A stretch of 64,000 nucleotides of DNA, from the NCBI GenBank assembly GCA_964580285.1, contig CAZOKB010000002.1:34770-98769 (forward strand), given 5' to 3'. This document shows, in pieces, positions 1 to 20,902 of the stretch. The stretch is from an uncultured Bdellovibrionales bacterium. GTDB lineage: Bacteria > Patescibacteriota > Minisyncoccia > Moranbacterales > UBA1568. The notes under the pieces were generated by a model. It did no database searches, was not told the origin of the DNA, and was given only the letters and a program-made list of their open reading frames with translations. The translations under genes and the position numbers were made by a program. Position 1 is the stretch's first letter, and each line of letters opens with the position of its first letter.

Positions 1-173
1 ATATGGTTAAATCAAAATCAGGGCGCATCTTTGCGCTTAAGAACCATGATGAGTGTTCGGTTGATATTACAAAAATCCTGAGTGATTTGGAAGATTTAGT
101 AAAAACAAGTGTAGAGCAAGATCGGCTTCGAGAAAGAATAAAGAAGGTATTTCCTTCGTTGAAAAAATAAGCA

Positions 174-1385
174 GTGGCTATGATTTCTTTGCGATCCATT
201 GTACGAGGAAATCATTTTTGGATATCGATTCGATATGCCATTCTTTCGCTATCTGGTTTTTTGATTTCTATTGTTTTTGCTAGGTTAGGGGATAAAGAGA
301 TGTATGGATCGTACCAGTATGTATTCTCCCTAGTCTCTCTTGTTTCGGTTTTTTCTATTCCTGGAATTTCTCTTTCTGCATTACGCAGTGTGGCTTACGG
401 GAACACCGGAGCTGTTTCGCGGGCTGTTAAAACGAGTATTCTCTTTTCGTTTATTGGTTCAATAGTATTAGTACTCGTTGCTCTTTTTCAGTATTCAAAA
501 GGGATGATGGTACTAGGAACTTCTTTTCTGATCACCGCTTCTTTCTTTCCGTTTTTTTATGGCTTTACTCCCTGGTACACCTTTTATGAAGGAAGGAAAA
601 ACTTTCAACCCGTTGTTTTGCGTTCCATCTTTCTTTCCGTTGCCTGGTTAGTATTACTCCCTATATTGCTTCTTTTAAAAGCCTCTCTCCCTGTTCTTAT
701 TTTTTCTTACTTTCTTCTCTCTTCCCTTTTGCTTGCTTGCTTTTTTTTCGAGGGGAAAAGGAAGCACTCTTCTGAAGGAAGGGAGAGTCTTTCTTTGTGG
801 TATGCTTTTATTGTAACGGGTCAAAAGTTTATTTTAAACATGACAGAAAACCTCCCGGTCTTATTAATCGGGTCTTTTTTTGGGTACTCAACGGTTGCTC
901 TTTTTCAGGTTTCGTATTTTCCTTTGTCAGCATTCGCAGCTTATTTTGGGGCACTTATTGCTACCAAGTTACCTGATTTTTTTCTTGGGAACGAACAAGG
1001 GGAGCAGAAGGATCGTGCCGTGTTCTTGCAGAGCTTGTTTAGTGGAATTTGTGCGAGTTTTTTTGTCGCTTTTTTCCTCACCTTCTTTTTCCGGATTTTT
1101 TATGGAGAAGATTATTCTGATTCACTGAAAATGGCATGGCTTCTTTTGCCTATGGTGCTACTTTTCCCACTAAAGACTTATTTATTGAATTATTTTACCG
1201 CAAAAGATAGAAATTTTTCTATTATGAAAATTATTGCTTTTGCCAATATTATTTCAACCCTTTTGTTTATTGGGCTTGGGAAAGCAGGGTATTCGTATCT
1301 GTTCATTATTCCTTTGTATATGTATGTGCTAAATGGAATAACTACTTTTTCATTGGCTGTTTTTTATAGCTATAGAAAGAAGTAA
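174..1385 (+). CDS. MOP-superfamily polysaccharide/oligosaccharide flippase (Wzx-like) membrane protein
   Basis: 403 aa, ~12 predicted TM helices, hydrophobic composition typical of Wzx/MATE-like flippases; first gene of a + strand glycan operon. Confidence 0.65.
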   Translation: MAMISLRSIVRGNHFWISIRYAILSLSGFLISIVFARLGDKEMYGSYQYVFSLVSLVSVFSIPGISLSALRSVAYGNTGAVSRAVKTSILFSFIGSIVLVLVALFQYSKGMMVLGTSFLITASFFPFFYGFTPWYTFYEGRKNFQPVVLRSIFLSVAWLVLLPILLLLKASLPVLIFSYFLLSSLLLACFFFEGKRKHSSEGRESLSLWYAFIVTGQKFILNMTENLPVLLIGSFFGYSTVALFQVSYFPLSAFAAYFGALIATKLPDFFLGNEQGEQKDRAVFLQSLFSGICASFFVAFFLTFFFRIFYGEDYSDSLKMAWLLLPMVLLFPLKTYLLNYFTAKDRNFSIMKIIAFANIISTLLFIGLGKAGYSYLFIIPLYMYVLNGITTFSLAVFYSYRKK

Positions 1386-1482
1386 ATCAATTAAGTCCGA
1401 ATAGAGATAGAGAAAATTGTATCAATGAAACAAAAAGAGTATAATAAAATGGCTTATTTATAGGAAAAAAATAATTTTTTTT

Positions 1483-2421
1483 ATGGAAAATACTGTTCAA
1501 TTAGAAACTATTCCTTGTCCGTTGTGTGCTTCTACTGCTTTTGCGGTTGTATATCCTGGAAATTTTCCTAACGAGCTTTCTCAGGAGTTTTTGACGAAGG
1601 TGTATTGTTCTTCGAGTGATCAGACGATTTTTGAGCAAGTGGTTCGTTGCAATAAGTGCGAATTGGTTTATTTAAATCCAAGACTTCATTCAGATGTTAT
1701 TGTTGATTCTTACGCACAGGGAGAGGATGCAACATTTGTTGAACAGGATCTGATGCGAATCAGAACTTTTGTCGCTGCCCTTCAATGGCTGCGAAGAAAA
1801 TATCGCTTACGTTTTTCTAAAGAGACGAAAGTACTGGATATTGGATGTGCTGGCGGTGCTTTTTTGCGAGCTGCACAGAGTTTGGGTTTGTCGGCAGTTG
1901 GAGTAGAGCCGAGTAAGTGGCTTGGTGAATACGCAAGATCTAAGCATGGTCTCGAGGTGTATACTGGCACCTTATTTGATCATCCTTTTCCTGAAGCTAG
2001 CTTTGATGTAGTAACCCTCTGGGATGTGATTGAGCATGTGCCGGATCCGAGTTCTGAATTAAAAGAAGTGTATCGAATTTTGAAGCCTGAAGGATTGCTT
2101 GTAGTTAATTATCCTGATTTTGGAAGCTTAGCGTCCATGATAATGGGAAAGAAATGGCCATTTCTTTTAAGTGTGCATCTGGTGTATTACACTCGCAAGA
2201 CAATACGACGACAGCTAGCAAAGGCAGGTTTTAGAGTTTCTTGTATTCGTCTTCACTGGCAAACACTTGAGTTGCGCTATGTTTTGAAGCGAGCAGCTGC
2301 TTATTTTCCGTTTTTAAAATTTGTAGGAATTTTGGTTGAAAAACTTGGAATTGGTTCTTTTCCTTTGAAATACTGGATAGGACAAACTCAGGTGGTGGCA
2401 AAAAAGAAGTATGTCCAATAA
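1483..2421 (+). CDS. class I SAM-dependent methyltransferase with N-terminal Cys4 zinc-ribbon
   Basis: motif LDIGCAGGAF (SAM-binding motif I), acidic motif II (DVVTLWDVIEHV), N-terminal CPLC...CNKC. Confidence 0.8.
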   Translation: MENTVQLETIPCPLCASTAFAVVYPGNFPNELSQEFLTKVYCSSSDQTIFEQVVRCNKCELVYLNPRLHSDVIVDSYAQGEDATFVEQDLMRIRTFVAALQWLRRKYRLRFSKETKVLDIGCAGGAFLRAAQSLGLSAVGVEPSKWLGEYARSKHGLEVYTGTLFDHPFPEASFDVVTLWDVIEHVPDPSSELKEVYRILKPEGLLVVNYPDFGSLASMIMGKKWPFLLSVHLVYYTRKTIRRQLAKAGFRVSCIRLHWQTLELRYVLKRAAAYFPFLKFVGILVEKLGIGSFPLKYWIGQTQVVAKKKYVQ

Positions 2422-3082
2422 TCTTTCTGAAATTGAAGTAGTGATATTCGACATGGATGGGGTGTTGTTTCTCTCGAGTGATTGTCACGAACGGGCTTTT
2501 CGGGAAGTCTTACAAAAAATCGGTATTACGGATTTTGCCTATGCCTCTGTGGCGGGGATGCGGACAGAGGAAACAATAGAAAAGATTTTGATTGAAAATG
2601 GGAGATTAGTTTCCTTAGAAACCGTGCAAGAGCTTGCAAATGCAAAACGGAAACGAGCACTTGAATTTTTAGGGAAAGAAGGGGAAATCACCCCCCAAAG
2701 TAAAGAACTTATTGCATCTCTTCGAAAAAAATATCGGCTTGTCTTGGCTTCTTCGGCCTCTCCTCAGACTGTAGAGCTTTTTTTGCAAAAAAGCGGATAC
2801 TCAGACGCCTTTAAACTGTGTCTCAATGGGGCTATGGTAAAAGAAGCAAAGCCGTCTCCAGAGATTTATTTATTGGCTGCAAAAAGGCTTGATATAGAGC
2901 CAAAAGGGTGTATAGTAGTTGAAGATGCAATAAATGGCGTGGAGGCAGCTAAGAAGGCCGGAATGCTTGCTGTTGCTGTTTTAGGGACAGAGGTTCCCGA
3001 GAAACTCTTAGCTGCCGGAGCTGATTACCTTATCAAAAATCTTGCAGAAATAGAACCGATTTTGCTTACCAGGCCTATATGA
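2411..3082 (+). CDS. HAD-superfamily hydrolase, subfamily IA (beta-phosphoglucomutase-like phosphatase/mutase)
   Basis: N-terminal VIFDMDGVL (DxDG nucleophile motif), C-terminal VEDAINGVEAAKKAGM (HAD motif IV); 11-nt overlap with upstream gene. Confidence 0.8.
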   Translation: MSNNLSEIEVVIFDMDGVLFLSSDCHERAFREVLQKIGITDFAYASVAGMRTEETIEKILIENGRLVSLETVQELANAKRKRALEFLGKEGEITPQSKELIASLRKKYRLVLASSASPQTVELFLQKSGYSDAFKLCLNGAMVKEAKPSPEIYLLAAKRLDIEPKGCIVVEDAINGVEAAKKAGMLAVAVLGTEVPEKLLAAGADYLIKNLAEIEPILLTRPI

Positions 3083-3888
3083 AAATTCTAACATTTGAGG
3101 AAGTGCATCGTTCTTGTGGTGTAGGGCTAGACCCTTCGCTTTGGACGGTAGTAATTCCGGCTGCAGGGAAAGGAACTCGTCTTGGTTATTCTAAACCGAA
3201 AATTCTTTATCCTATAGCAGGAAAGACTATTCTTGATAGAATGATCGATCTTCTTTCTCCATTTTGTGCAAATTTTAAGTTTGTATTTTCTCCTCTCAAT
3301 GCTTCTTATGCTGCGCATATTGTGGAGGATCGATTAGGATCTCGTGGAAAATCCCTTGTTATAGAAAATTCTAAAGGTATGGCTGATTCTATTTATCGTG
3401 CCATTCCAGAAATCACAACCCCCTATACTCTTATTATTTGGGGTGATCAGCCGGCGATTTTACCGGAAACTATCCGTGCTCTTATGGAGATCAAGCAATC
3501 TTACGAAGAAACAACTTTGGTGCTTCCTCTGGTATCGCGGGAAAATCCATATGTTCATTATGAAAGTAATGAAGCTGGTTGTTTTATTCGTGTGCTTCAG
3601 AGGCGCGAAGGAGATATGATGCCGTCGATTGGAGAAAGTGACTGCGGAGTTTTTGCTTTTAATACAAAAGAGTTACAAGGAGTTTTCCGACAAGAAATTG
3701 AAAAAGGGATTTCGCTGAGTCAAGTTACGAAAGAGTGGAATTTTCTTCCTTTACTCCCTCAGTTTGATACTAATAGTGAAGCAGTAAAGGCATTGCGCTT
3801 GGATTCTTTGGAACAAACAATTGGTGTGAATGATGCTCAGGATGTTGCAATTCTTGAGAAATATTTTAATGAGTTATCCGTGAAATAA
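3079..3888 (+). CDS. nucleotidyltransferase (MobA-like / sugar- or phospho-compound NTP transferase fold)
   Basis: VVIPAAGKGTRLG glycine-rich NTP-binding loop typical of RmlA/LicC/IspD/CofC-like nucleotidyltransferases; ATGA overlap with HAD gene. Confidence 0.75.
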   Translation: MKILTFEEVHRSCGVGLDPSLWTVVIPAAGKGTRLGYSKPKILYPIAGKTILDRMIDLLSPFCANFKFVFSPLNASYAAHIVEDRLGSRGKSLVIENSKGMADSIYRAIPEITTPYTLIIWGDQPAILPETIRALMEIKQSYEETTLVLPLVSRENPYVHYESNEAGCFIRVLQRREGDMMPSIGESDCGVFAFNTKELQGVFRQEIEKGISLSQVTKEWNFLPLLPQFDTNSEAVKALRLDSLEQTIGVNDAQDVAILEKYFNELSVK

Positions 3889-3893
3889 AGAGT

Positions 3894-5951
3894 ATGCTAA
3901 AGGATGAGGGGGTAAAGTTGCGGGTAGTGATGTTCTCAGGAGGAAGGGGAACCGGTGTTCTGACAGAAGCGCTTTTGAAGTATCCAGATATAGAACTTAC
4001 ACTTCTGGTGAATACGTACGATGATGGTCTTTCTACGGGACTATTAAGGCGCTTTATTCCTGGTATGTTAGGTCCATCTGATGTACGAAAAAATATTTCT
4101 CGTTTTCTGAAAATTCGAAGCGATGCTGCTTCTCAGGCATTGCATTGGCTTATCGAATATCGTTTTCCAGAAGATATACAGACCGAGCGAGCATTGAATA
4201 TACTGAATGATTTTATCTCACTTGAGAACCGTAAAGTGATTACGGGCGAACTTTTATCTATGAGAGAAAAACTCTCTCTCGGGCAAGCTAAAAAAGCAAG
4301 TGAGTACTTAGCAGTTTTTCTTGCTTATTACACAGAACGCATTGCTGTTTCAGAATTCACTTTTCAAGATTGTTCTTTTGGAAATTTACTTTTTGCAGGA
4401 TGTTACTTGGTGAACGGAAATGATTTTAATAAAGCGATTAAAGATTTTTCTCAATTCGCAGAAATTGGTGATCGAGTATTAAATATCACAGATGGCGAAA
4501 ATCGAGTACTGGTTGCAATAAAAGAGAATGGACAGTATCTGCATGATGAAGCAAGTATTGTAGGTCCTCAGGATGCTTCTCGAATTCAAGAAATTTTCCT
4601 TTTACGAGATTATCTGGATAAAGCGACACATTCATTGAATGAATTTAAAATTGATAACGTCCGGTTTTTAAGGAATATTGAATCTCTTCCTCGAATTAGC
4701 CCAACAGCAGAAAAGGTGTTACAAGAGGCGGATATTATTATCTATGGCCCTGGGACACAATATTCATCGCTTCTTCCATCGTATCTAACTTCTGGTGTTG
4801 CGGAAATAATTCAAAAAAATACGCGTGCTGAAAAAATTTTTATCGCCAATATTGCACGTGATTATGATATTCTTGGCGAAGATGCAACTACTTTAGTGAA
4901 AGCCTTTTTGTTTAATATGAGCCGTAAGGTTGAAGGCATGGTGCGATGCCAAGATGTGGTGACCCGGTTCTTTTTTCAGAAACCTGAAGTAAACGAAAAC
5001 GAAGAAACCCCGTATGTTCCTTTTGACGCAAAGGCCTTTGAATATCCTCTAGAAAAAGTAGTATGGATTGATTGGGAGGGAGAGAAGGGTAAGCATTCTG
5101 GAAGCAAAACGATTTCTGAGCTCCTCTTGCTTGTTGAGGGTGCGCTGCAGAAGAAGGTTTCGCATGTTTCTCAAAAGGTTTCTATTATTGTTCCTGCGCT
5201 CAATGAGGAGCGGACAATAAAAAATACACTTCAAGATCTTGCTCGCTTTCAATTTTCTGGATTCTCTTTGGAAAAAGAAATTATTGTGATAGATGGTGGA
5301 TCAACAGATAAGACATACGAAATAGCGAGTGCAGAACCTACAGTAAGGGTATACCGGAGTAATGGAGGGAGAGGAAAAGCGCTTCGATTGGGGCTTGAAA
5401 AAGCAAAGGGGGATATTGCAGTTTTTTTTCCAGCAGATGCAGAATACCTTGTAGAAGATATCGCGCGAGTTGTTTCTCCGTTAGTGAGCCAAGAGTTCCC
5501 AGTAGTCTTCGGAAGTCGAGCTTTTCGTACTAATGATCTTAACGGAACACTGAAGCGGATTTACGGGAAGAAGGGATTTTTGTACTTTATCAGTAAATAT
5601 GGAGGAGTGCTTCTAAGCGTGCTGACATTAGTCATTTATCATCGTTTTGTTAGTGATCCATTGACGAGTCTTAAGGGCTTTAATTCACGTATTTTTCGTG
5701 ATCTTCAATTTACTCGTAGCGGTGTTGACTTTGATATGGAGCTTATCGCAAAAATCGCTCGGAAAAAATATGTTATTCTAGAAGTACCAGTGAGTTATAA
5801 GGCAAGAACTATCCAGGAAGGGAAAAAGATTACCGTACTTGATGGTTTGCGGTGTCTATGGACATTGCTACGTTTTTCTAGTTGGAAGCAAAAGAGAATA
5901 TCAGAAACCCAATATGCCAAAAGTATCAATCGTTATTCCAGCGTACAATGA
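3894..5951 (+). CDS. fusion protein: N-terminal CofD/YvcK (UPF0052) family domain + C-terminal family-2 glycosyltransferase
   Basis: N-term VVMFSGGRGTGVL...LTLLVNTYDDGLSTGLLRRF matches the GGxGT and DDGGSxGRLR signatures of the CofD/YvcK superfamily. C-term VSIIVPALNEERTI...IIVIDGGSTDKT...PADAEY is a canonical GT2 (DPM1-like). No Met/stop at the junction. Confidence 0.75.
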   Translation: MLKDEGVKLRVVMFSGGRGTGVLTEALLKYPDIELTLLVNTYDDGLSTGLLRRFIPGMLGPSDVRKNISRFLKIRSDAASQALHWLIEYRFPEDIQTERALNILNDFISLENRKVITGELLSMREKLSLGQAKKASEYLAVFLAYYTERIAVSEFTFQDCSFGNLLFAGCYLVNGNDFNKAIKDFSQFAEIGDRVLNITDGENRVLVAIKENGQYLHDEASIVGPQDASRIQEIFLLRDYLDKATHSLNEFKIDNVRFLRNIESLPRISPTAEKVLQEADIIIYGPGTQYSSLLPSYLTSGVAEIIQKNTRAEKIFIANIARDYDILGEDATTLVKAFLFNMSRKVEGMVRCQDVVTRFFFQKPEVNENEETPYVPFDAKAFEYPLEKVVWIDWEGEKGKHSGSKTISELLLLVEGALQKKVSHVSQKVSIIVPALNEERTIKNTLQDLARFQFSGFSLEKEIIVIDGGSTDKTYEIASAEPTVRVYRSNGGRGKALRLGLEKAKGDIAVFFPADAEYLVEDIARVVSPLVSQEFPVVFGSRAFRTNDLNGTLKRIYGKKGFLYFISKYGGVLLSVLTLVIYHRFVSDPLTSLKGFNSRIFRDLQFTRSGVDFDMELIAKIARKKYVILEVPVSYKARTIQEGKKITVLDGLRCLWTLLRFSSWKQKRISETQYAKSINRYSSVQ

Positions 5952-6654
5952 AGAAGCATTCATAGGAACGCTTCTCGAGACTATCTTACAGGTTGATCTC
6001 AAATCTATCGGTTTTGAAAGGGAAATTATTGTAGTGGATAATGGCTCAAAAGATAGAACTCATGAGATTGCGAGTGCCTTTCAGGAGGTACGTTGTCTTC
6101 ATCTAGACGTGAATCAAGGAAAGGGTGGAGGAGTGAAATATGGCGTAGCAAATGCAACTGGTGATTATATTTTGATCCAGGATGCTGATCTTGAATATAA
6201 CCCAAAGGATTATATCCCTCTCCTCAAGCCACTTTCGAAATCTCCTCAGTCCTTGTCGGTATACGGGAGTCGAATTCTTGGTGAGCTTCAAGAGGGAGGG
6301 GCGAGTTGGCTTCCCGGAAAACACAAAGATAAATCTCTAGCTACTTATATTGCTAATACCATTCTTTCTTTATGGGCGTTTTTATTATACGGGCGTTATA
6401 TGACAGACACGCTGACTGGGTATAAAGTCTATCCAGCAAAGCTTCTTCAAAATTTTAGTATTCAAACTTTTGGTTTTGAGACGGATCATGAATTAACCGC
6501 AAAATTACTTCGAAGTGGTGTCAAAATTATTGAAGTCCCGGTTTCGTATCAGCCCCGGACATTAGAAGAAGGAAAAAAAATACGTGCCATTGATTTTGTT
6601 ATTGCTCTTTGGACATTTTTAAAATTTCGATTTGTATTTAAGAAAAATTTTTAA
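5914..6654 (+). CDS. family-2 glycosyltransferase (polyprenyl-phosphate sugar synthase-like)
   Basis: MPKVSIVIPAYNEE...IIVVDNGSKDRT...DADLEYNP; start chosen at MPKV (38-nt overlap with upstream gene). Confidence 0.85.
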   Translation: MPKVSIVIPAYNEEAFIGTLLETILQVDLKSIGFEREIIVVDNGSKDRTHEIASAFQEVRCLHLDVNQGKGGGVKYGVANATGDYILIQDADLEYNPKDYIPLLKPLSKSPQSLSVYGSRILGELQEGGASWLPGKHKDKSLATYIANTILSLWAFLLYGRYMTDTLTGYKVYPAKLLQNFSIQTFGFETDHELTAKLLRSGVKIIEVPVSYQPRTLEEGKKIRAIDFVIALWTFLKFRFVFKKNF

Positions 6655-6661
6655 AAACGGG

Positions 6662-7066
6662 ATGATTAGATTGATTCTTGAAAAATTTCCATTAAAGCGC
6701 CTCATAAAATTCATTATCACAGGCGGCGTTGCATTGGCTATTGATATGGCTATCTATTTTATTTTGACCCGCTATGGAAATATCTATTATCTTTTTGGTC
6801 GGATAATTTCTTTAGGAATTGCAATTATTTGGAACTTCAGTATTAATCGTATCTGGACCTTTTCAGCTCTATCTGGAAAAGTGACGCAGCAAATGCCGCG
6901 TTTTCTGGTAGTTATTTTTTCAACGTCTCTTTTAAGTTTGATACTCATGCATATCGGAGTCTCTGTTTTTCACTTTAATGATCTCCTTGTATTGATTGTA
7001 GTTGCTGTTACCACAACACTGATTAATTTTTCTGCTCATTCATTTTGGAGCTATTCAAAATATTAA
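6662..7066 (+). CDS. GtrA-family small membrane protein
   Basis: IKFIITGGVALAIDMAIYFIL ... IAIIWNFSINRIWTF; typical GtrA topology and position directly after a GT2. Confidence 0.75.
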   Translation: MIRLILEKFPLKRLIKFIITGGVALAIDMAIYFILTRYGNIYYLFGRIISLGIAIIWNFSINRIWTFSALSGKVTQQMPRFLVVIFSTSLLSLILMHIGVSVFHFNDLLVLIVVAVTTTLINFSAHSFWSYSKY

Positions 7067-7067
7067 T

Positions 7068-8759: not shown

Positions 8760-8772
8760 AAAAGAAATCCAA

Positions 8773-9981: not shown

Positions 9982-9991
9982 AAGAATATTG

Positions 9992-10975: not shown

Positions 10976-11766
10976 AGAGTTGCTTTCCGTTTCAGTTTTT
11001 TTAACCATTGCGGTGCAATGGCGACTAAGATTGGTTCGGCAAGCCATTTGTATTCACAGAGAGATCTTTTGTATCGCCTGAGGTATTTGATTCGAGTTTT
11101 AACGCATTGGAGCATCTGGTCTTTCTGATTTTTTCCATCAGAAGTAAGAGTGTTTTCGATATTTCGAAAACAGAGAAATTCGGGGATATTAGCAAAAGAA
11201 GATTGTGGGAGAAGGCGAAGCCAGAGATCGTAATCTTGTCCGTAGTAGACGGTTTCGTCATATCCTTCCACCTCTTTGATTTTGTTTGTTCGGAAGACAA
11301 CGCAGCTATGGGCAAATGGATTGTGTTTGAAAATATTTCTTTTGATTTCCTCGTTTGTTTCTGGGAGAGTAATTCTTTTTAATCCTTTTGAAGAGATATT
11401 TTCGTACCAGGTTCCGACGAGATCACAATCAGGGTGGTTTTCGAGAAAGTAGATTTGTTTTTCAAGTTTTTCTGGATGCCATTTGTCATCAGCATCGATT
11501 CTGGCGGTGTATGGCTCAGTAATAAATGATAATCCTTTGTTGAGAGATCGAGTAAGGCCGATATTGGTTTCATTTGCTAAAAGAAAAAATCTCTCTTCTC
11601 CGAATCGGTTTTGCCATTTCTTAAGAGAATTCAATGTGTCATCTTTTGAACAATCGTTTATAGCAATGATTCGAAAGTCTTGAAAAGTTTGTACTGAAAG
11701 ACTTTCGAATGTTTTATCGAGAGTTTTTTCTGCGTTATAGAGCGAGATAAGTACGGCGCATTTCAT
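10972..11766 (-). CDS. family-2 glycosyltransferase
   Basis: MKCAVLISLYNAEKTL...IIAINDCSKDDT...RIDADD. Confidence 0.85.
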   Translation of the reverse strand: MKCAVLISLYNAEKTLDKTFESLSVQTFQDFRIIAINDCSKDDTLNSLKKWQNRFGEERFFLLANETNIGLTRSLNKGLSFITEPYTARIDADDKWHPEKLEKQIYFLENHPDCDLVGTWYENISSKGLKRITLPETNEEIKRNIFKHNPFAHSCVVFRTNKIKEVEGYDETVYYGQDYDLWLRLLPQSSFANIPEFLCFRNIENTLTSDGKNQKDQMLQCVKTRIKYLRRYKRSLCEYKWLAEPILVAIAPQWLKKLKRKATL

Positions 11767-12866
11767 AGGGAATTGAGGAATTTTCTTAGTGACTCAGAAC
11801 TTGCTTTAAGAGAGAGATTTTTATGTATGAATTCTTTAGCTGCTGTCCCGATCTTTCTTGCTTCCTCTAGATTATCGAGAACTATGCGTATTGCTTGTGC
11901 GATATCGTTTGATGATTGAACTGGAACAAGAAAGCCAGTCTTTTTATTTTCAATGAGAACACGGTTTTCTGGGATATTCGTGGTAATAATAGGCAACGAG
12001 CATGTCATGGCTTCGAGAATAGCATTGCTCATTCCTTCAAAAAGAGTGGGAAGGACAAAAAGATGGGAAATTTTGAGAAGCTGAGGGACGTCGTTCCGGC
12101 GGCCGAGAAAAAGAATGTTTGCTTGGGAAGCGTAATTTTTAATCTGTTGTTTGAGGTTTTCTTGCTCGATTCCATCACCAACAAGGAGGAGTTTGAGTGG
12201 TCTTTGGTTGATGTGATGAAGTTCCTCGAAGGCTTCAAGAAGATATCGATGTCCTTTGTTTGGATGGAGGTTAGCGACACAGATAATGACGAAATCATCA
12301 GGGTTAATACTGAGAGATGTAATAAGGTTTTGATCTGGTTTTACTGAATCAAAAAAGTCAGTATCAATTCCTGTTGATACCACGGTAATTTTTTTCTGTG
12401 AGACCCCGAATTTTTCTACATAAGCATCCTTCACTGCTTGGGAATTTGCAAGATAGTGAAAAACAAAAGGTTTTGATATCTTTTCAAAGATTCGAGCAAA
12501 AAAATAACGAGAATAATTGTAGGTTGTCCCAAGGAAGGGAATGACCGGAGCGGAAGTAATCTTTTGAAGGGCAAAACGACCAATTGTGTCGGCATGAAAA
12601 AGGTAGGTAAGAATAATATCTGGTTTTTCTTCACGAACCAGTTTTCGAAGTCGAAAAACTCCACTAATATCAATTATTCCATTACAATGAACTGTTTCTA
12701 CGGGAATACCACTGGCAACAAACTTCGGAGTAAGTTCACCAAGTTCTTTTAAAGTGATAATTTTGTGTTCAAAATCAGAAAGTAGTGGAAGAGTACGTAG
12801 AAGGGCGTTTTCCCATCCTCCGTTACCAAGTGATTGGATGACATGAAGAATCTTTTTTTTCGGCAT
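11763..12866 (-). CDS. GT4 glycosyltransferase
   Basis: FEGMSNAILEAMTCSLPIITTNIPENRVLI...GFLV. Confidence 0.85.
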   Translation of the reverse strand: MPKKKILHVIQSLGNGGWENALLRTLPLLSDFEHKIITLKELGELTPKFVASGIPVETVHCNGIIDISGVFRLRKLVREEKPDIILTYLFHADTIGRFALQKITSAPVIPFLGTTYNYSRYFFARIFEKISKPFVFHYLANSQAVKDAYVEKFGVSQKKITVVSTGIDTDFFDSVKPDQNLITSLSINPDDFVIICVANLHPNKGHRYLLEAFEELHHINQRPLKLLLVGDGIEQENLKQQIKNYASQANILFLGRRNDVPQLLKISHLFVLPTLFEGMSNAILEAMTCSLPIITTNIPENRVLIENKKTGFLVPVQSSNDIAQAIRIVLDNLEEARKIGTAAKEFIHKNLSLKASSESLRKFLNSL

Positions 12867-12885
12867 AAGAAGAGATACCTTCTAG

Positions 12886-13974
12886 CTATCGTGTCCCTAC
12901 ACAGGTGATACCAGCCTCTGGATGCTCGAAGGATTGAACGTCCTTAAGTCTTCCGTCCCGAAACCATTGCTCGATTTCCTCAAAAAAGTAATAGTTGCTT
13001 TTTGGAGTCGCGAGGACATCAAAAGCGTCGTTGAGCTTCATGTTGAATGGAAAATGTGCATAGTAGGCAAACGGAAGTCTAGTTGCCAATTCCTTGAACC
13101 CGATTTTCTCGAGAAGTTTTCCGAAGAGATTGATAAGATGAACGCCAAACCCAGGAAGATAGCAGAACTTGAAGAGGATTGGTTTCGGGAGCTTCTTCAG
13201 AATGTCACGGAGCGGTTCGTAGAAATAAATAGCGCGCGCGTTGTTACGTCGGTTGTATACCCAGATCAAGAATTTCCCGCCCGAAGTAACAGTTTTTGGA
13301 AGCTTGAGGAAGCCTTGTTTTGGTCTTGGGAGATGATGAAGGACGCCGATAGAATAGGAGACATCAAAGGTGCCAAGGAATGGCATTTTATAAATATCAG
13401 CCTGGATAATACAGACATTCGGGAGATCCTTGGTCATGTCATAGGCTACCTCGACAGTTTCGCCGAGATCAGAACCAAAGGATACTTCGGTGCCAGAGAG
13501 CGCGGCCCACTTGGTGAAGCGTCCAGACCCGCAGCCGATATCGAGCGTCTTCTTTTCTTTGAGATTTTCTTCTTTCAAAAACGGTGAGAGAAAATGGAAG
13601 AAATTGTTTTTCTCGTAGTCGTTTTCTTTGTAGATGTACTTCCATTCATAAGCAAAGCTCTCGGCGGTTTTCTTTTGATGTCGCCAGAAAGCATCAAGAT
13701 CAGGAATAGCATCTATAGCTTTCTGCCATTCTTCGCTTATGTGAGGAGTAAGTTTTTCTTTGCAGGTATTAAAGAAATCTTGATGGACTTGGAGAAGGTT
13801 TTCTTTGAGTTCTTCTGTGAGAATTCTTGGGATCCCATTGATAATTGGATACCATGATTGCTCGGCAGTTAAAATGCCTGAAACAATATGTGGACCGTTT
13901 TCCTCGAAGATAGTGATTTCAAATGGCTTGTGCGAAATCGGATCAGAAAGATACTGGAGGTGCTCGTGTCTCAT
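12886..13974 (-). CDS. SAM-dependent methyltransferase with N-terminal Trm112-like domain
   Basis: LDIGCGSGRFTKWAAL (motif I); N-terminal ...YPIINGIPRIL Trm112-like segment. Confidence 0.8.
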   Translation of the reverse strand: MRHEHLQYLSDPISHKPFEITIFEENGPHIVSGILTAEQSWYPIINGIPRILTEELKENLLQVHQDFFNTCKEKLTPHISEEWQKAIDAIPDLDAFWRHQKKTAESFAYEWKYIYKENDYEKNNFFHFLSPFLKEENLKEKKTLDIGCGSGRFTKWAALSGTEVSFGSDLGETVEVAYDMTKDLPNVCIIQADIYKMPFLGTFDVSYSIGVLHHLPRPKQGFLKLPKTVTSGGKFLIWVYNRRNNARAIYFYEPLRDILKKLPKPILFKFCYLPGFGVHLINLFGKLLEKIGFKELATRLPFAYYAHFPFNMKLNDAFDVLATPKSNYYFFEEIEQWFRDGRLKDVQSFEHPEAGITCVGTR

Positions 13975-13995
13975 CGTTTCGGAATTATGAGTTAT

Positions 13996-14024
13996 AGAAA
14001 AAAGAGCTTTAATTTAGCTCTTTT
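13996..14024 (-). terminator. intrinsic terminator downstream of asnB-like gene
   Basis: AAAGAGCT-(7 nt loop)-AGCTCTTT hairpin followed on the minus strand by TTTTTTCT. Confidence 0.55.
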
Positions 14025-14061
14025 CCATTATATCACAGCTATTTATTTTGTGGCATGAAGT

Positions 14062-15948
14062 CTAAAAATACTCTTCAAACCAAAGTTCAAGAGTGAGAAG
14101 TGCCCAGATATGGGGAGAAAAATTGATGCTTGTGTTGCAGTGCTGATCAAGGATGTGCTCGATATATTCTTTGCGGAAGAGCTGGTCTTTGATGAGACGG
14201 CCGTTCAGGAGTTTTTCTCGTGTGTAGTCTTTGAGTTCATTACGAAACCAGTCATTGATGGGGACACCGAATCCCATCTTTGGCCGAAACATGACTTCAT
14301 CAGGTATGATGCCGCGAAGCGCTTCTTTGAGAATGTATTTCTTGTTGTTCAGTCCTTTGAGCTTCAGATGGAATGGAATCCCTGCTGAGAGTTCAAGCAT
14401 TTCGTGATCCAGAAAAGGGGATCTGCCTTCGAGTGCAACAGTCATCGTGGCGATATCAACTTTTACCAGGAGATCATCAGGAAGGTAGGTGGAAAAATCA
14501 GCGTAGACTGCTTGTTCTGCTCTCTGGGATGACCCGGATTGATTAAATTCGTGAGCGATCAGATCGTATGTGTCATTTCCCCAAACCTTCGCTTTGAATT
14601 CGTCAGTGTAAAGTTCTGCTTTTTGAGGATTGGTAAAATAGGAGGTGTAGTCCATATATCGCCTTCGGTAGTCTTCTCTGAGTGAGCGGCTGAACCGATG
14701 AATACGATCGAAAAGAGTGTTTTGGATAGTGTCGGCTGCGAGCCTGGCAAGAGGAGTTCCGAGATTTTTATGGAGAAATCCGAGTCGATCAAAAAGAAGC
14801 GAAATCTGGAAGGCTGCATAACGACTGTAGCCGGCAAAATTTTCATCTCCGCCGTCTCCGTTGAGAGCGACGGTGACGTGTTCGCGGGTGAGCTGAGAGA
14901 CGTAATAAGTAGGGAGTGCACTCGAATCAGCGTAGGGTTCCTCGTACTGTTTTGCGAGCATCGGAAGGAGTTCGATGGCATGCGGCTCAACAATGAATTC
15001 GGTGTGATCGGTCTTGAATCGATCAGCGATCATTTTTGCGTATGGGAGCTCATTGTACTTCTCTTCTTTAAAGCCAATGGAAAAGGTCTTAATGGGTTTA
15101 TCGGAATGCCGGGCCATCATAGCTACGATGGCACTGGAATCAACCCCGCCTGAAAGGAAGGCACCGATTGGCACATCGGAAATCATGCGGAGGCGAGTTG
15201 ATTCATCGAGCTTATCAATGATACGTTTTTTCCATTCATCTTCTGAGAGATCAAGCTTTTTTGAGTAATCAAGTTTCCAGTACCGCTTTTTTTCAAGAGT
15301 ACCGGTTTTAATATCGAGGGTGAGTGAGTGAGCAGGTTCAAGCTTTTTGATGTCCTTGAATCCGGTCATTGGGGCGGGGACATACTGAAGCGTCAGATAA
15401 TGATGAATCGCTTCGTAGTCAGGCTCTCTATGATATTCCGGTTGTGTCAGGATAGCTTTAAGTTCAGAGGCAAAGAGGAAAGTTTTCCCGTCAAAGAAGT
15501 ATTTGAGTGGCTTCTTGCCGACACGATCCCGAGCAGCGAAAAGTCGCCCTTTTTTTTCATCGTAGATGGCGAAAGCAAACATGCCGCGGAGATGATCGAG
15601 GCATTGCTCTCCGTATTTGTCGTAGAGTGCAAGGATAACTTCTGTATCTGAATGGGATGCAAACGTATAGCCTTCTTTTTCGAGAAGAGTACGCTTCTCT
15701 TGGAAGTTGTAAATTTCGCCATTGAAGACAATCTCATAGCGGTCAAGGTAGCGCATCGGCTGGTGGCCGAGCGGTGAGAGATCGATGATCGAGAGGCGAC
15801 GATGGCCGAGACCGACTTTTTGGTCGGGGGAAATATATACACCGCCATCGTCTGGACCGCGATGGAGGATAGCGTGATTCATTTGTTCGATCTCAGGAAG
15901 AAATACTTCTTTTGATGAAAGAGAAATTTTTCCAGCGATGCCGCACAT
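14062..15948 (-). CDS. asnB: asparagine synthetase B-type glutamine amidotransferase (glycan amidotransferase, WbpS-like context)
   Basis: N-terminal MCGIAG (Ntn Cys), SGGVDSS PP-loop, full-length ~630 aa; start set at MCGIAG. Confidence 0.9.
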   Translation of the reverse strand: MCGIAGKISLSSKEVFLPEIEQMNHAILHRGPDDGGVYISPDQKVGLGHRRLSIIDLSPLGHQPMRYLDRYEIVFNGEIYNFQEKRTLLEKEGYTFASHSDTEVILALYDKYGEQCLDHLRGMFAFAIYDEKKGRLFAARDRVGKKPLKYFFDGKTFLFASELKAILTQPEYHREPDYEAIHHYLTLQYVPAPMTGFKDIKKLEPAHSLTLDIKTGTLEKKRYWKLDYSKKLDLSEDEWKKRIIDKLDESTRLRMISDVPIGAFLSGGVDSSAIVAMMARHSDKPIKTFSIGFKEEKYNELPYAKMIADRFKTDHTEFIVEPHAIELLPMLAKQYEEPYADSSALPTYYVSQLTREHVTVALNGDGGDENFAGYSRYAAFQISLLFDRLGFLHKNLGTPLARLAADTIQNTLFDRIHRFSRSLREDYRRRYMDYTSYFTNPQKAELYTDEFKAKVWGNDTYDLIAHEFNQSGSSQRAEQAVYADFSTYLPDDLLVKVDIATMTVALEGRSPFLDHEMLELSAGIPFHLKLKGLNNKKYILKEALRGIIPDEVMFRPKMGFGVPINDWFRNELKDYTREKLLNGRLIKDQLFRKEYIEHILDQHCNTSINFSPHIWALLTLELWFEEYF

Positions 15949-15952
15949 AAGA

Positions 15953-17626
15953 TTATTTCTTTTTTTCCTGATAGACAACTATTTCACCAAACTGTCTATC
16001 TTTTGAAAAGTTAGCTAGATTTGGTAGTGATATATTCGTGCAATTTACTTCAGAAAAGGGTTGTTCTTTAGAGAAGATAGAAAATTTAGAAAGGATTCTA
16101 AAGAATTTTTCAAATAAATTTCTGTAAGAATAAGAATCGCAATTTTTGGTTGCACTTACGTAGAACTTTGCCCGAGAAAGATCACCACCTCTCTCAGGTG
16201 CTTTTGTTTGGTAATTTAGAAACAGCTGAGTATTGATAAAGGTTGCTTCTGGAGAATAAACGATTTTTTCCTCCGGGGAAGTGTTATAGGTCAGGTATTC
16301 GAGTAATTCATCTGAAATAGCAATATTTTGTGCCTGATTAAGATATGCATTCCAGAGATACGCATATACGGATGAAAGTGTGATGGATACAAGCAGAACA
16401 ACAAGAGTTAGTCCTTTTAGAGCTATAGAATAGATCCTTAATGGAATGTTTTTTGAAATTACTTTAAGCCAAAACCACGCAGCCTGCCCATACAATAGAA
16501 ATGTTACAGGCCAAAGATAAATAAGCGCCCTTTCCCCATTTATATTCAGGGAAGATATAGCGACAAAAAGTATGCCAGCAATATAAAGGCTAAGAAGTTT
16601 AAACTGTTTAAAATAGAAAAGGATCACTAAACAGAAAAAAAGCAACGGATACCCAAGCCAGTTGAGGAATATTAATTTAAAATAATTCTCTTCTATTTTT
16701 TTCCAACCCAAAAACATTATATTTTTCTTTTCTTGAGTGCTGGATAGGAAGTTGGATGATTCTGTTGTATTTTTTTTGTTTAGAATTGTTTCAGAGGTGT
16801 TAGTTGTTTCAGTTGTAGATTTATTTTCAACTATACTCTTGGTGATAAATTCGGGACTATATGGATTTCCATAGGAAGTATGGGAATAATATATAGCAAC
16901 AGGAGCGTAAACAATAATGCTAATAGTACAGAAAAAAATTATCTTTTTGAGTAACTGACGATCAATGTTTTTTGTCAGAAGCGAAAATAGAACAAAGAAG
17001 AGGAAAAGAATACACAAAAAATAAAGACTAAGAACGTGATTGAATATATAGAACGGAGAAATTACTCCAAGAATAATCAGCCATTGTTTTAATGTATGGT
17101 CAAAAAGAATTCCGAGAATAAAGAAAAAGAACGCAAGAGAGAAGAAGCTCGGAACGACCCAAAAAAATCCATGATAAGCCCCTGATCCGTTGTAGAGCGC
17201 TAGAATAAACAGAGAAAAGGCTATGAAGTTTTTATTGTTATTACAAAGTCTTTTCAAAAAAAATAACAATGATCCGAGAAGAAGAATGGTCCCAATGTAG
17301 AAGCCTAGATGATAAGTTTCAATTGCATTTAACTCAAGAAGTTTTCCGATTGTCCCAAAGAAAAGTCGATAGGTAAGATGATCAAATCCTGTATATGTAT
17401 CAAAATTTACCGGATTATCTTTGCAAAAAATAAAACTCTTACACTGCAAGACAGAGTCAATATGTTGTATGTACACATATGAATCATCGGGACTTGGTGG
17501 TATATGCCTATTGTTCCAAAGTGTCCCTATAAGAAAGAATTTCCAGATAATAAAAAATATGGATACAACAATGATCCACTTATTTTGTTTCGTCCAGTCA
17601 ATTATCTGTTTTTGATTAAATTGCAT
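15953..17626 (-). CDS. polytopic membrane protein with Thr/Asn-rich low-complexity loop, function unknown
   Basis: ~14 hydrophobic segments; internal STTETTNTSETILNKKNTTESSNF segment; start set at MQFNQ to avoid 66-nt overlap. Confidence 0.55.
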   Translation of the reverse strand: MQFNQKQIIDWTKQNKWIIVVSIFFIIWKFFLIGTLWNNRHIPPSPDDSYVYIQHIDSVLQCKSFIFCKDNPVNFDTYTGFDHLTYRLFFGTIGKLLELNAIETYHLGFYIGTILLLGSLLFFLKRLCNNNKNFIAFSLFILALYNGSGAYHGFFWVVPSFFSLAFFFFILGILFDHTLKQWLIILGVISPFYIFNHVLSLYFLCILFLFFVLFSLLTKNIDRQLLKKIIFFCTISIIVYAPVAIYYSHTSYGNPYSPEFITKSIVENKSTTETTNTSETILNKKNTTESSNFLSSTQEKKNIMFLGWKKIEENYFKLIFLNWLGYPLLFFCLVILFYFKQFKLLSLYIAGILFVAISSLNINGERALIYLWPVTFLLYGQAAWFWLKVISKNIPLRIYSIALKGLTLVVLLVSITLSSVYAYLWNAYLNQAQNIAISDELLEYLTYNTSPEEKIVYSPEATFINTQLFLNYQTKAPERGGDLSRAKFYVSATKNCDSYSYRNLFEKFFRILSKFSIFSKEQPFSEVNCTNISLPNLANFSKDRQFGEIVVYQEKKK

Positions 17627-17634
17627 GAATTTGG

Positions 17635-18798
17635 TTAATAAACAGAACCTTTTAAGATTTTTTTGAATACTTCTAAATATCTTTCGATAGAGTGTGGCCA
17701 CGAAAATTTATCATTTACTTTTTGATAGGCATTTTCTCCTAAGGACTGCCGAAATGTTGGATTATTGAGTAGTTTCTCTAATTTTTCAGCAAGAGACTGT
17801 ATATCATGTGGCTGGATGAGAAATCCATCTTTATGGCCAGAAATGACTTCTCGGGTACCGCCAACATTGGTAGCGATTATGGCTTTTTTGCAGAGAGCAG
17901 CTTCAATGACAGTAGTAGGAATTCCTTCTGAATAACTTGGATTAACAAAAATATCGGATACCTTCAAGAGTGCTATGGCTTCATCAAAACGACGGTGCCC
18001 AAAAAAAGTAACACTTTCTTCAAGATCTTTTTCTGAAACAAGATTTTCTAATCGCTTTAATTCTGGTCCATCCCCAATGATGAAGCAGTGAAAAAGTTCG
18101 TGATTCAAAGTGCTAATAGCTGCTATTAGATCCTTTACTCCTTTTCCATCAATGAGTCTACCGATGTAGCTAATGATGACTTTATTTTTATGATCTCTTT
18201 TAAAATTAGCGGCTTCTTGGATACGAAAAATATTTTCACTTTCAATTCCACGGTATATTACATGACAGTCAGTTCGTCCTGAGAGTGTATGAACAAACTC
18301 GGCTGATGCGTGTGAATTTGCTATGACAAGATCAGCGCGACAAATTACAAAACGTCCAAAGATTTGGTCATAAAGAATGCCGAGTTTTGTTTTGCAGTAT
18401 CCGTTGAATTGAGCATAACTTGATCCATGTTCGATATGAACAAGAGGAAATTTTCTTTTTTTGGCATAGTACCAGGCCATGAGAGAAGTAAAGAAAAATC
18501 GAGTACGACAAATAACAAGACTATAGTCATCTTTAAATAAAAGCTTCCATTGTTTCCAAAACGCACGTGACCAAAATTTTGGAAGAGGGTAGTTGTGTAT
18601 TAATTCGAAAGCAGGGAATCGCACTATTCTTACATTATTATGGCGTATTTCAGTTTCTGGGGCTTCTTGAGGAAGTCTCGGAGTAAATACAAAAATTTCT
18701 ACACCCTTCTTTGAAAGGTATTTATTAAACTCATCGCTATGCGTTTCCAGTCCGCCAATATGCGGAGGATAGTATGGTGAAAATATGAGGAGCTTCAT
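17635..18798 (-). CDS. GT4 glycosyltransferase
   Basis: SEGIPTTVIEAALCKKAIIATNVGGTREVI...GFLI. Confidence 0.85.
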   Translation of the reverse strand: MKLLIFSPYYPPHIGGLETHSDEFNKYLSKKGVEIFVFTPRLPQEAPETEIRHNNVRIVRFPAFELIHNYPLPKFWSRAFWKQWKLLFKDDYSLVICRTRFFFTSLMAWYYAKKRKFPLVHIEHGSSYAQFNGYCKTKLGILYDQIFGRFVICRADLVIANSHASAEFVHTLSGRTDCHVIYRGIESENIFRIQEAANFKRDHKNKVIISYIGRLIDGKGVKDLIAAISTLNHELFHCFIIGDGPELKRLENLVSEKDLEESVTFFGHRRFDEAIALLKVSDIFVNPSYSEGIPTTVIEAALCKKAIIATNVGGTREVISGHKDGFLIQPHDIQSLAEKLEKLLNNPTFRQSLGENAYQKVNDKFSWPHSIERYLEVFKKILKGSVY

Positions 18799-18799
18799 T

Positions 18800-19171
18800 T
18801 TATTCTTCTTGTTCCTCTGATGTGCCTTTGAGCGCTTCTTGTCGTGTGAGGGTAGTAAACTGTTGCTCGAGGCGTTCGATGGCGGAGAGGAGTTTGAAAA
18901 TCATAAGGAAGACAAGAATGAAGCCAACGAGGATGACGGCGTTGATATTGCCCGAGATGCCAATCCAGAGGGCGACATCGTTGCTCAGGTTTGGCCAGAT
19001 GGCGATGGCTGCCATGCCACCCCAAACAATGATACGCACGGCGAGCTTGATAAAAGTCTGTCCGCTCTCATGTTTGATAAAATTTTTAACACCCTGGCCG
19101 ATCATGAAGAGGGCGAGGATGGCGATGACTATCTGGTAAAGCGCGAAGGACATAATAGGGTCAATTAACAA
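18800..19171 (-). CDS. small membrane protein (DUF2304-like partner of GT2 genes)
   Basis: 123 aa, three hydrophobic helices, charged C-terminal tail, located immediately downstream of a GT2 gene as in GT2-DUF2304 pairs. Confidence 0.5.
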   Translation of the reverse strand: MLIDPIMSFALYQIVIAILALFMIGQGVKNFIKHESGQTFIKLAVRIIVWGGMAAIAIWPNLSNDVALWIGISGNINAVILVGFILVFLMIFKLLSAIERLEQQFTTLTRQEALKGTSEEQEE

Positions 19172-19205
19172 TTAACAAAAAACAGATAACAATTTAACTG
19201 ACAAT
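19162..19205. repeat. AATTAACA(A/G)TTAACAA motif copy with local inverted repeat (GTCAATTAAC ... GTTAAATTGAC-like)
   Basis: sequence GTCAATTAACAATTAACAAAAAACAGATAACAATTTAACTGAC in the 22-bp gap between two minus-strand genes; related to the IRs at 21843 and 22308. Confidence 0.4.
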
Positions 19206-20789: not shown

Positions 20790-20902
20790 AAAGCCCTTCT
20801 TACAGAATACCAGCTTTCGGGGAGTTGAAAAAGGTCCGAAAGGCCCATTTGCAAGGGATTTTTGAGAGGGGTATACTAGAAGAAAGCTAAATATTTGATG
20901 CT

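Follow-up and report, generated by a model that had tools for sequence, protein, structure and literature searches.

What makes the base composition of a bacterial glycan locus change within a few nucleotides, at the junction of two genes? The question is raised by contig CAZOKB010000002.1 (assembly GCA_964580285.1), of which we analysed a stretch of 64,000 nt (positions 34,770 to 98,769 of the forward strand), called the window below and used for all coordinates. Its first 18.8 kb form a low-GC block of glycan genes, and a preliminary description made from the sequence had likened this block, abutting DNA of about 50% GC, to laterally exchanged O-antigen or capsule islands or, alternatively, had taken the contig for a chimera. 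Our analysis points, at a probability of roughly 0.7, to a genuine biological border that falls within a single large cell-surface glycan locus, inherited vertically and with modular exchange of fast-evolving low-GC specificity genes. Loci in related contigs are labelled L004, L012, L176, L182 and so on.

Compositional border at a gene junction

GC content is 38.4% in positions 1–18,799 vs. 48.0% in 18,800–64,000, and in a 1-kb profile it stays at 33–46% up to about 18.8 kb and at 43–54% after it. The maximum-likelihood single change point is 18,813 (log-likelihood ratio 249 vs. a maximum of 16.4 in 200 shuffles of 100-bp blocks), 14 nt from the 18,799/18,800 junction; the sharp switch at a gene boundary (18798/18800) that had been noticed by eye was thus borne out. 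The border as we define it (18,799–18,813) comprises this change point and the 1-nt spacer between the start codon of GT4d, a glycosyltransferase (GT) gene, and the stop codon of a gene for a DUF2304 protein. Across this spacer the GC content of third codon positions (GC3) leaps from 0.27 in GT4d (17,635–18,798, minus strand; Pfam Glycos_transf_1, E 3e-41), the last low-GC gene, to 0.62 in the DUF2304 gene. Third codon positions account for most of the GC difference, with GC3 of 0.27–0.36 on the left vs. 0.43–0.64 on the right.

The different codon preferences claimed for the two sides were also found. A leave-one-out log-likelihood ratio of synonymous codon choice was negative in 14 of 14 low-GC genes and positive in all 32 genes to the right, and relative synonymous codon usage correlated between low-GC and host-type genes at 0.19. 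Tetranucleotide signatures were likewise not uniform (label permutation p = 2e-4), the effect being modest after base-composition normalisation (r = 0.59 between classes vs. 0.66–0.70 within). GT4 genes in the block have lower GC than those outside it also at first (0.40–0.53 vs. 0.54–0.63) and second codon positions (0.32–0.34 vs. 0.36–0.43), indicating that the AT bias reaches the amino-acid level.

The low-GC block is a mosaic and not uniform. A fit with two change points isolates the interval 12,860–15,900 at 45.2% GC, with limits about 50 nt or less off the genes of a methyltransferase (MT2) and an AsnB-family amidotransferase; recursive single-split segmentation missed this patch, and the two-change-point fit was required. 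The range of 33–38% GC first given for the whole 18.8 kb therefore fits parts of the block but not the patch. Nor does the block start at position 1. On L092 and L093, contigs of other samples that overlap the left edge, low GC extends about 2.1 kb further left, to a divergent junction with a PMT-type gene (43% GC), with GC3 values of 0.34 in an epimerase, 0.42 in a dehydratase and then 0.47 in the PMT gene. Including this part, the whole low-GC block measures about 21 kb. The window itself begins with the 3′ end of a Polysacc_synt_2-type sugar dehydratase (1–170, plus strand; open reading frame 3–170).

Within the window the block encodes one Wzx-type flippase, seven Pfam-detectable glycosyltransferases, two membrane glycosyltransferases of GT-C fold recognised by structure only (TM582 and TM563), AsnB, two methyltransferases, a HAD phosphatase, a nucleoside triphosphate (NTP) transferase and GtrA. 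The flippase, asnB and two methyltransferases had been listed correctly; the eight glycosyltransferases become seven plus two, and the phosphatase, the NTP transferase and GtrA are additions. The DNA to the right is not unrelated to the block. Pfam scans showed that glycan genes run on to about 55.7 kb, with more GT2 and GT4 genes, two UDP-glucose dehydrogenases, a second Wzx, two Wzy_C proteins, two PMT_2-type GT-C enzymes and an LCP ligase. The compositional border is thus internal to a glycan region that exceeds 55 kb.

It lies, in addition, inside a string of closely packed or overlapping minus-strand genes that starts in host-GC genes. Promoter and terminator scans over 8–22.5 kb were at chance (30 vs. 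30.8 and 12 vs. 11.4, respectively), so that the operon structure rests on gene spacing only.

Continuity of the contig and search for mobile elements

An abrupt composition switch at a gene boundary could reflect two organisms mis-joined at about 18.8 kb, and contigs of other samples do end nearby (L009 at 18,779 and L010 at 18,869). Exact-protein look-ups, however, identified five assemblies from five samples that run through 18,799 (JGI 3300045396, JGI 3300045379, SRR12487045, DRR830134 and DRR274965), at an identity of 99.7–100% in four and 95.7% in the fifth. The junction and the genes on both sides of it are syntenic in many related genomes, and host-composition genes stand on both sides of the low-GC segment. 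A DUF2304/GT4 junction with a spacing of 0–23 nt was seen in most related loci having both genes; in L012, L021 and L026 a gene of about 700 AA lies between the two. On the strength of the spanning assemblies and the junction synteny we ruled out a chimeric contig, the chance of which we regard as negligible. The suspected mis-assembly is thereby removed, and the contig is sound across 18.8 kb.

An integrated mobile element, i.e., a prophage, an integrative and conjugative element or a serotype-converting cassette, would find a parallel in the GT2–GtrA–GT-C trio of the block, which resembles phage-borne serotype-conversion modules of enterobacteria, and in a GIY-YIG gene that follows AsnB in one strain contig (L004). 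Yet no integrase, transposase or phage structural gene was found in Pfam scans of the block, no tRNA gene in the window, and no flanking direct or inverted repeats other than short chance-level matches at the block edges. Scans of IMG/VR with TM582 and TM563 alignments revealed no relative of either GT-C family, and megablast of the block against phage and plasmid collections gave no match. Together with the synteny of the block in sister genomes, these results led us to reject an inserted island or integrative element, and we consider it very improbable.

Conservation and age of the low GC

Host affiliation was assessed with GT2c, the GT2 gene next to DUF2304 on the right of the border. Among the matches listed, the GT2c protein (19,194–19,889) is 66–75% identical to proteins of the nearest genomes of the GTDB species set, which are labelled Candidatus Moraniibacteriota or carry obviously unreliable labels; in scans of GTDB genomes and JGI metagenomes the best matches listed reached 75–77% identity, with no same-species contigs among them. 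Moraniibacteriota are part of the Parcubacteria group of Patescibacteria.

The same block occurs in sister lineages whose nucleotide divergence is about 26%. On the sister contig SRR16642443_3405 (L176, L183) nothing of the arrangement is missing between the GT2 genes on the right and the PMT gene on the left except the epimerase and dehydratase pair. The sister genome GCA_964436855.1 (L012, L182) also keeps the arrangement, but has an additional methyltransferase, and its membrane protein is a different one. The gene order GT2e..DUF2304>GT4d>TM582>AsnB>MT2>GT4c>GT2b>GT4b>GT4a<TM563<GtrA<GT2a<CofD-GT2 recurs in L176/L183 and, for the most part, in L182. A series running DUF2304 > GT4 > (large membrane protein) > AsnB > methyltransferase > GT4 > GT2 > GT4 is largely kept in about 10 related metagenome-assembled genomes (MAGs) of Moraniibacteriota type.

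Compared with L176, protein identity is 62–83% for the low-GC genes and 74–82% for the anchors, as we call the conserved genes of host-type composition. At identical residues, 39–67% of third positions are identical, which is near saturation given the base bias. The GC3 of the low-GC genes is nevertheless 0.27–0.36 in the window and 0.25–0.34 in L176, while AsnB and MT2 have 0.41–0.49 in both. That GC3 is low in both sisters despite near-saturated synonymous sites indicates that the low GC dates far back and was not left by a recent import.

This offset is not confined to one pair of sisters. Of 17 related loci, 16 show lower GC3 in the homologues of the low-GC genes than in the adjoining anchors (mean difference −0.106, Wilcoxon p = 4.6e-5), and over the 17 loci, in which anchor GC3 ranges from 0.18 to 0.80, the GC3 of these homologues tracks that of the host (slope 0.72, r = 0.88). 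The profile of low, high (AsnB) and again low GC recurs in L016, L017, L018 and L022. In L176 the low-GC zone also takes in GT2c and GT2d, showing that the position of the border is not fixed.

These data bear directly on a recent horizontal import, in which the block of about 21 kb would have been taken up as a unit from a low-GC donor and would not yet have drifted to host composition. Such an import would explain the strong GC3 and codon contrast and its knife-edge border, many relatives in the phylum-level group have 29–37% GC and are possible donors, and the contrast in the window (about −0.24 GC3) is among the largest of the compared loci. But the sister lineages carry the same block, with the same order and the same low-GC genes, and no donor is visible: the best non-self matches in the databases are 73% identical for TM582 and 81–82% for the CofD-GT2 fusion protein and TM563, mostly on sister contigs. 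Two host-composition genes sit mid-block, the GC-normalised tetranucleotide signature is only mildly different, and the border falls at a junction common to most related loci, inside a tight same-strand gene string and at a 1-nt spacer. A persistent, gene-class-specific GC offset fits the data; a recent, un-ameliorated import does not, and we judge it quite unlikely.

Exchange of modules between anchors

Old low GC and conserved synteny might also be expected if the locus had never been exchanged and its composition were intrinsic to the genes, through weak codon selection or a need for low expression. The retention of low GC across sister species at near-saturated synonymous sites and the offset that follows host GC in 16 of the 17 loci agree with such purely vertical descent. 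Comparison of individual genes argues otherwise. In the closest syntenic relatives the anchors are about 56–84% identical, whereas the cassette genes, i.e., the exchangeable low-GC genes, are 27–65% identical outside L176 or are replaced by an unrelated protein in the same slot. Similarity ranks are incongruent as well: L012/L182 is as close to the window as L176 both in anchors (AsnB 82%, MT2 84%, dehydrogenase 82%) and in the sub-module of CofD-GT2, GT2a and GtrA (71–81%), but is distant in six cassette genes (Wzx1, TM563, GT4a, GT4b, GT2b and GT4c), with just 38–50% identity.

The slot between DUF2304 and AsnB is an instance of such non-homologous replacement. It is occupied by a TM582-family protein in the window, L176, L017, L022, L023 and L025, and by a membrane protein of about 700 AA, which is unrelated to TM582 by BLAST and has one weak PMT_2 match, in L012, L014, L016, L018, L021 and L026. 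Neither this replacement nor the strain-level mosaic described below, with its breakpoints at module borders, is accounted for by purely vertical descent, and the GC of further Wzx, Wzy and GT-C genes in this genome is normal. We therefore find it unlikely that the locus was never exchanged.

Recombination at the border can be followed between strains. A mismatch map against the strain contig L004 (DRR274965) revealed a tract of about 3.3 kb (15,966–19,242) that holds TM582, GT4d and DUF2304 and is 99.7% identical, vs. 92–98% in AsnB on one flank and 82–96% from GT2c to GT2e on the other, where the differences are mostly at third positions. Of the two breakpoints, the left falls no more than about 60 nt from the compositional border on its side, and the right about 400 nt from the other border. 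A contig of another sample, L184 (SRR24742824), has the same left breakpoint at 100% identity, which makes an assembler strain-switch unlikely. The donors of the cassette genes appear to lie within the lineage. Among 5.8 billion clusters the TM582 and TM563 families have 91 and 70 members, and all named members are Patescibacteria, labelled Moraniibacteriota, Parcubacteria, Saccharimonadales or Patescibacteria (for TM582, Moraniibacteriota or Parcubacteria).

Further observations were made at strain level. The contigs L006, L009, L188 and L192, otherwise 99.9–100% identical, show short patches of 9–27 clustered differences in glycan genes of host GC in 20,000–31,000, namely in UDP-glucose dehydrogenase (22.5–24 kb), GT2e (21–22 kb), PMT2 (28–29.5 kb) and the gene of a 510-AA protein (30.5 kb), and one further patch falls in CofD-GT2. 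Such clustered patches are the signature of frequent short recombination imports. In L004, at positions 7706–8117 of that contig (beyond window position ~14,065), homology stops right after AsnB; an 84-AA GIY-YIG gene and a terminator-like hairpin replace the methyltransferase side, and the contig ends. The other same-species contigs all carry the same genes. We also noted an 18-nt inverted pair (17,602–17,619/19,172–19,189, 16 of 18 positions complementary) in the short spacers bracketing GT4d and DUF2304, near the right recombination breakpoint; as 17 such pairs occur in 23 kb, it is probably there by chance.

The idea of a laterally exchanged island was thus right in kind, given the module exchange and the strain mosaic, but not in form: there was no insertion, two sisters have the same order, and the low GC is old.

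Proposed origin of the low GC

According to the explanation that we favour, conserved anchors with genome-typical composition, namely the GacI/PpgS-like GT2c with DUF2304 and the UDP-glucose dehydrogenase, lie on one side of the border, with AsnB and MT2 as a second anchor inside the block. On the other side are the specificity genes, i.e., the GT4 and GT2 transferases, the two GT-C-fold transferases, Wzx and GtrA, which would determine which sugars become linked and to what; they evolve fast and have had low GC for a long time. Between lineages they are exchanged one module at a time, probably through homologous recombination whose crossovers fall in or beside the anchors. Their low GC would most likely come from AT-biased mutation that is less opposed in these genes than elsewhere. 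Codon selection may be weaker in them, and their alleles may be too divergent for more than a little within-gene homologous recombination, hence little GC-biased gene conversion, so that the anchors would be the main target of GC-biased repair. Exchange that draws only on a pool of related CPR (Candidate Phyla Radiation) genomes, often of low GC, may add to the effect. This combination of mutation and recombination would account for the offset that scales with the host, the sharp borders at anchors and the host-type AsnB/MT2 patch.

A further-reaching proposal, which we advance tentatively and with more doubt than conviction, is that the low GC is no foreign relic but an actively maintained equilibrium that follows host GC with a negative offset across the CPR lineage. 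Whole-module exchange through the anchors would let the cassette genes escape from within-gene recombination and GC-biased repair, and the anchors, recombining freely, would stay GC-rich.

A number of points weigh against the border as a product of modular exchange within a vertically inherited locus. The cause given for the low GC is an inference. The 17 loci are phylogenetically non-independent, and the classes of anchor and cassette were defined from this window. Host identity is based on MAG labels, some of them clearly unreliable ("uncultured Bdellovibrionales"). Wzx2, Wzy1, Wzy2, PMT1 and PMT2 of the same window have host GC, so that being a glycan membrane gene is insufficient for low GC. 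An alternative full gene set at the locus was not seen among same-species contigs, so that serotype-like variation within the species is no more than hinted at, by L004 with its loss of homology after AsnB. Finally, the strain event can be read in two directions: either the cassette passed from one diverged backbone to another, or a near-clonal frame took up divergent anchor alleles. Anchor import is at least as likely as cassette movement, and the clustered patches favour it as the general pattern. Whichever the direction, homologous recombination acts at module borders.

Genes of the block and its anchors

The anchor pair on the right of the border (18,800–19,889, minus strand; GC3 0.61–0.62) is made up of a small DUF2304 membrane protein of the GacJ/Rv3632 family (18,800–19,153, in the gene given as 18,800–19,171; Pfam DUF2304, E 1e-14) and GT2c, which is similar to GacI/PpgS-type polyprenyl-phosphate sugar (HexNAc) synthases (Pfam GT2, E 3e-27). 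NCBIfam scores of GT2c were 160 bits for PpgS (equivalog cutoff 370) and 127 bits for AglJ, placing it at the level of family membership only. Two further GT2 genes of host GC (GC3 0.50–0.52; Pfam; syntenic in relatives) follow at 19,917–20,789 on the minus strand and 20,903–21,841 on the plus strand, and they flank the divergent intergenic region where the minus-strand gene string begins.

The anchor patch inside the block (12,886–15,948, minus strand) has a GC content of 0.44–0.46, a GC3 of 0.48 and a host-type codon log-likelihood ratio. It holds MT2 (12,886–13,974) and AsnB (14,062–15,948), both with 64–84% identity to relatives. AsnB scored 492 bits on asn_synth_AEB (TIGR01536), above cutoff, and 622 bits on the model of an exopolysaccharide (EPS)-associated amidotransferase, below the cutoff of that model.

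TM582 (15,953–17,626, minus strand; GC3 0.31) lies between AsnB and GT4d, in the variable slot. Searches of Pfam (E values up to 5) and NCBIfam yielded no match for TM582 and nothing above noise for TM563. The structure model of TM582 (mean predicted local distance difference test score, pLDDT, 87) matched STT3, PglB, AglB, ArnT, ALG9 and DPY19 in Foldseek at E 3e-6 to 3e-4, suggesting a GT-C-fold membrane glycosyltransferase. Its PPEPDDSY motif is conserved, with D73 invariant and D72 near-invariant (at least 90% of the family).

On the other side of the anchor patch, four cytoplasmic glycosyltransferases of low GC are encoded on the minus strand (8773–12,866; Pfam; GC3 0.27–0.36): GT4a (8773–9981), GT4b (9992–11,008), GT2b (10,972–11,766) and GT4c (11,763–12,866). 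They vary between species, with identities of 75–83% in L183 vs. 38–50% in L182.

The left part of the block is transcribed from the plus strand. The Wzx-type flippase Wzx1 (174–1385; Pfam Polysacc_synt, E 1e-9; GC3 0.35) has 50% identity in L182 vs. 75% in L183. It is followed by a conserved low-GC sub-module (1483–5951), identified by Pfam and NCBIfam and 55–82% identical to sister genomes, which comprises a methyltransferase (1483–2421), a HAD/beta-phosphoglucomutase-like hydrolase (2411–3082), a MobA/GlmU-like NTP transferase (3079–3888) and a CofD-like–GT2 fusion (CofD-GT2, 3894–5951). A search with CofD-GT2 returned 746 proteins from several phyla, many of them fused to an NTP transferase in proteins of about 950 AA. 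An NTP transferase paired with a CofD-like protein is reminiscent of CofC/CofD, by which a phospho-acid is activated and transferred; the CofD-like protein also has an NCBIfam match to the CofD-related UDP-GlcNAc-binding protein YvcK.

A Gtr-like trio of low GC (5914–8759, plus strand), recognised by Pfam and, for TM563, by fold, completes this side: GT2a (5914–6654), GtrA (6662–7066; Pfam E 2e-19) and TM563 (7068–8759). The model of TM563 (pLDDT 89) had GT-C enzymes as all of its top 14 PDB matches (E 3e-4 to 7e-2), so that a GT-C fold is predicted, on weaker fold evidence than for TM582. Members of the TM563 family occur on the same contigs as Patescibacteria-type CofD-GT2 matches. From the methyltransferase to TM563 (1483–8759), the series methyltransferase/HAD/NTP transferase/CofD-GT2 and then GT2–GtrA–TM563 is a conserved CPR module.

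Predicted roles and comparison with known systems

Function was predicted from the fold matches, the Pfam and NCBIfam matches and the GacI/GacJ/GacK/GacL paradigm. GT2c together with DUF2304 would make a polyprenyl-phosphate sugar, and the low-GC enzyme TM582 would transfer this sugar outside the membrane. AsnB would amidate a uronic acid made via the neighbouring UDP-glucose dehydrogenase. The border appears to divide a conserved synthase of the lipid-linked donor from the variable enzymes deciding where the sugar goes.

GacJ, the DUF2304 protein of Streptococcus pyogenes, binds GacI, a GT2 polyprenyl-phosphate HexNAc synthase, and strongly raises its activity; side-chain addition is then completed by a Wzx-like protein and GacL, a GT-C enzyme, and an LCP ligase attaches the product; in Mycobacterium tuberculosis, Rv3632 has the role of GacJ for PpgS (bioRxiv 10.1101/180810). 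As in the Gac and PpgS systems, GT2c stands beside a same-strand DUF2304 gene, and TM582 with its predicted GT-C fold, Wzx/GtrA and an LCP gene (53,587–54,849) are all present here. In contrast to them, GT2c is below the PpgS cutoff (160 vs. 370 bits), a GT4 gene lies between the DUF2304 and GT-C genes, and TM582 is recognised as GT-C by fold only.

The second parallel concerns the Gtr modules of Shigella and Salmonella phages, in which a GT2 (undecaprenyl-phosphate sugar synthase) and GtrA are conserved and the type-specific polytopic transferase is variable. Here too, GT2a, GtrA and the polytopic GT-C protein TM563 come in succession, and identities to L182 are 78% for GT2a, 71% for GtrA and only 47% for TM563. 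Unlike the Gtr modules, the trio is not phage-borne according to the IMG/VR, phage and plasmid searches, and we know of no Gtr module with the set of CofD-like–GT2, NTP transferase, HAD and methyltransferase genes to which the trio is linked.

O-antigen loci exchange by recombination in conserved flanks. The Wzx/Wzy-dependent O-antigen clusters of Salmonella enterica are divided into segments of differing GC, with precursor and modification genes of intermediate or genome-like GC; segments near the conserved flanks follow the host lineage and central genes the glycan type, and the low GC of O-antigen processing genes is stated to need explanation (PMC3715488). Segmental GC, genome-like anchors, the contrast between lineage-bound flanks and variable central genes, and recombination at the flanks are all seen in our locus. 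It differs in its CPR host, in that the block is without Wzy or an initiating phosphoglycosyl transferase, and in the prominence of two GT-C enzymes. CPR bacteria are, to our knowledge, generally described as having no outer membrane and no lipopolysaccharide. A low GC common to sister species at saturating divergence and scaling with host GC argues against the "low-GC ancestor" reading of the Salmonella clusters (PMC3715488).

Hypervariable regions of bacterioplankton hold cell-surface modification genes, including glycosyltransferases, and break metagenome assemblies (PMC9426551). Similarly, several contigs end in or at the edge of our block, and patches of clustered single-nucleotide polymorphisms occur between samples. 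Gene order, however, is conserved here between species, and no alternative whole gene set was found within the species. Overall the locus is of a known kind, with an O-antigen/capsule-type pattern; unusual are its CPR host, the GT-C enzymes of unannotated families and the evidence for a maintained low GC.

The wider glycan region and other features of the window

The glycan investment of the window, noted for 19,000–55,700, is very large for a presumably small CPR genome: two Wzx, two Wzy_C, at least four GT-C-type enzymes, about 20 GT2 and GT4 proteins, two UDP-glucose dehydrogenases and an LCP ligase. Both Wzy_C genes (at 35,669 and 50,896) have host GC; positions 1–18,800 encode no Wzy_C protein, and the Wzx-type gene there is that at 174–1385. 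An initiating phosphoglycosyl transferase domain (Bac_transf or WecA/MraY type) was found in none of the 50 window proteins that were scanned; such a gene may be outside the window. Large proteins of the window with no family assignment have 510 AA (at 30,025), 638 AA (at 42,147) and 220 AA (at 41,026).

A gene of about 67% GC (31,945–32,334, minus strand) lies between the 510-AA protein and Wzx2 in this 48% GC genome. It encodes 129 AA with a signal-peptide-like N-terminus (MKRKHLLLAALVALTAPAAFAA...). Exact matches of the protein are indexed in 36 collection blocks; 23 contigs were read, and the context was the same in all eight places shown. The gene is a real part of the genome and looks like a small high-GC acquisition.

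An insert of about 470 nt (21,833–22,332) carries a gene for a four-helix-bundle protein ("23S rRNA intervening sequence protein", PF05635), apparently split into open reading frames of 56 and 89 AA. It is flanked by 25-nt inverted repeats (21,833–21,857/22,308–22,332, 92% complementary) and has no counterpart in L012 and L176, whose spacers at this place measure about 35–53 nt. An Rfam search of the whole window detected no RNA family. GC skew (G over C, plus strand) is positive in 64 of 64 one-kb windows regardless of gene orientation, which suggests that the whole window is on one replichore with a strong strand bias.

Significance

A bacterium of the CPR, a group known for very small genomes, thus devotes at least 55 kb to surface glycans, in a locus organised as in well-studied pathogens: the anchors are conserved, and the specificity genes are low in GC and exchangeable. 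Such an organisation agrees with the view that surface variation is important to these episymbiotic or phage-exposed cells. Structure models assign a putative GT-C fold to two protein families, TM582 and TM563, that no sequence library recognises. The comparative data, in which GC3 stays low although divergence is saturating and the offset scales with that of the host in 16 of the 17 loci, speak against the textbook equation of low GC with recent import. If the equilibrium proposal is true, such loci, with their controls built in by nature, could serve to test why the wzx, wzy and GT genes of so many bacteria are rich in AT, which PMC3715488 leaves unanswered.

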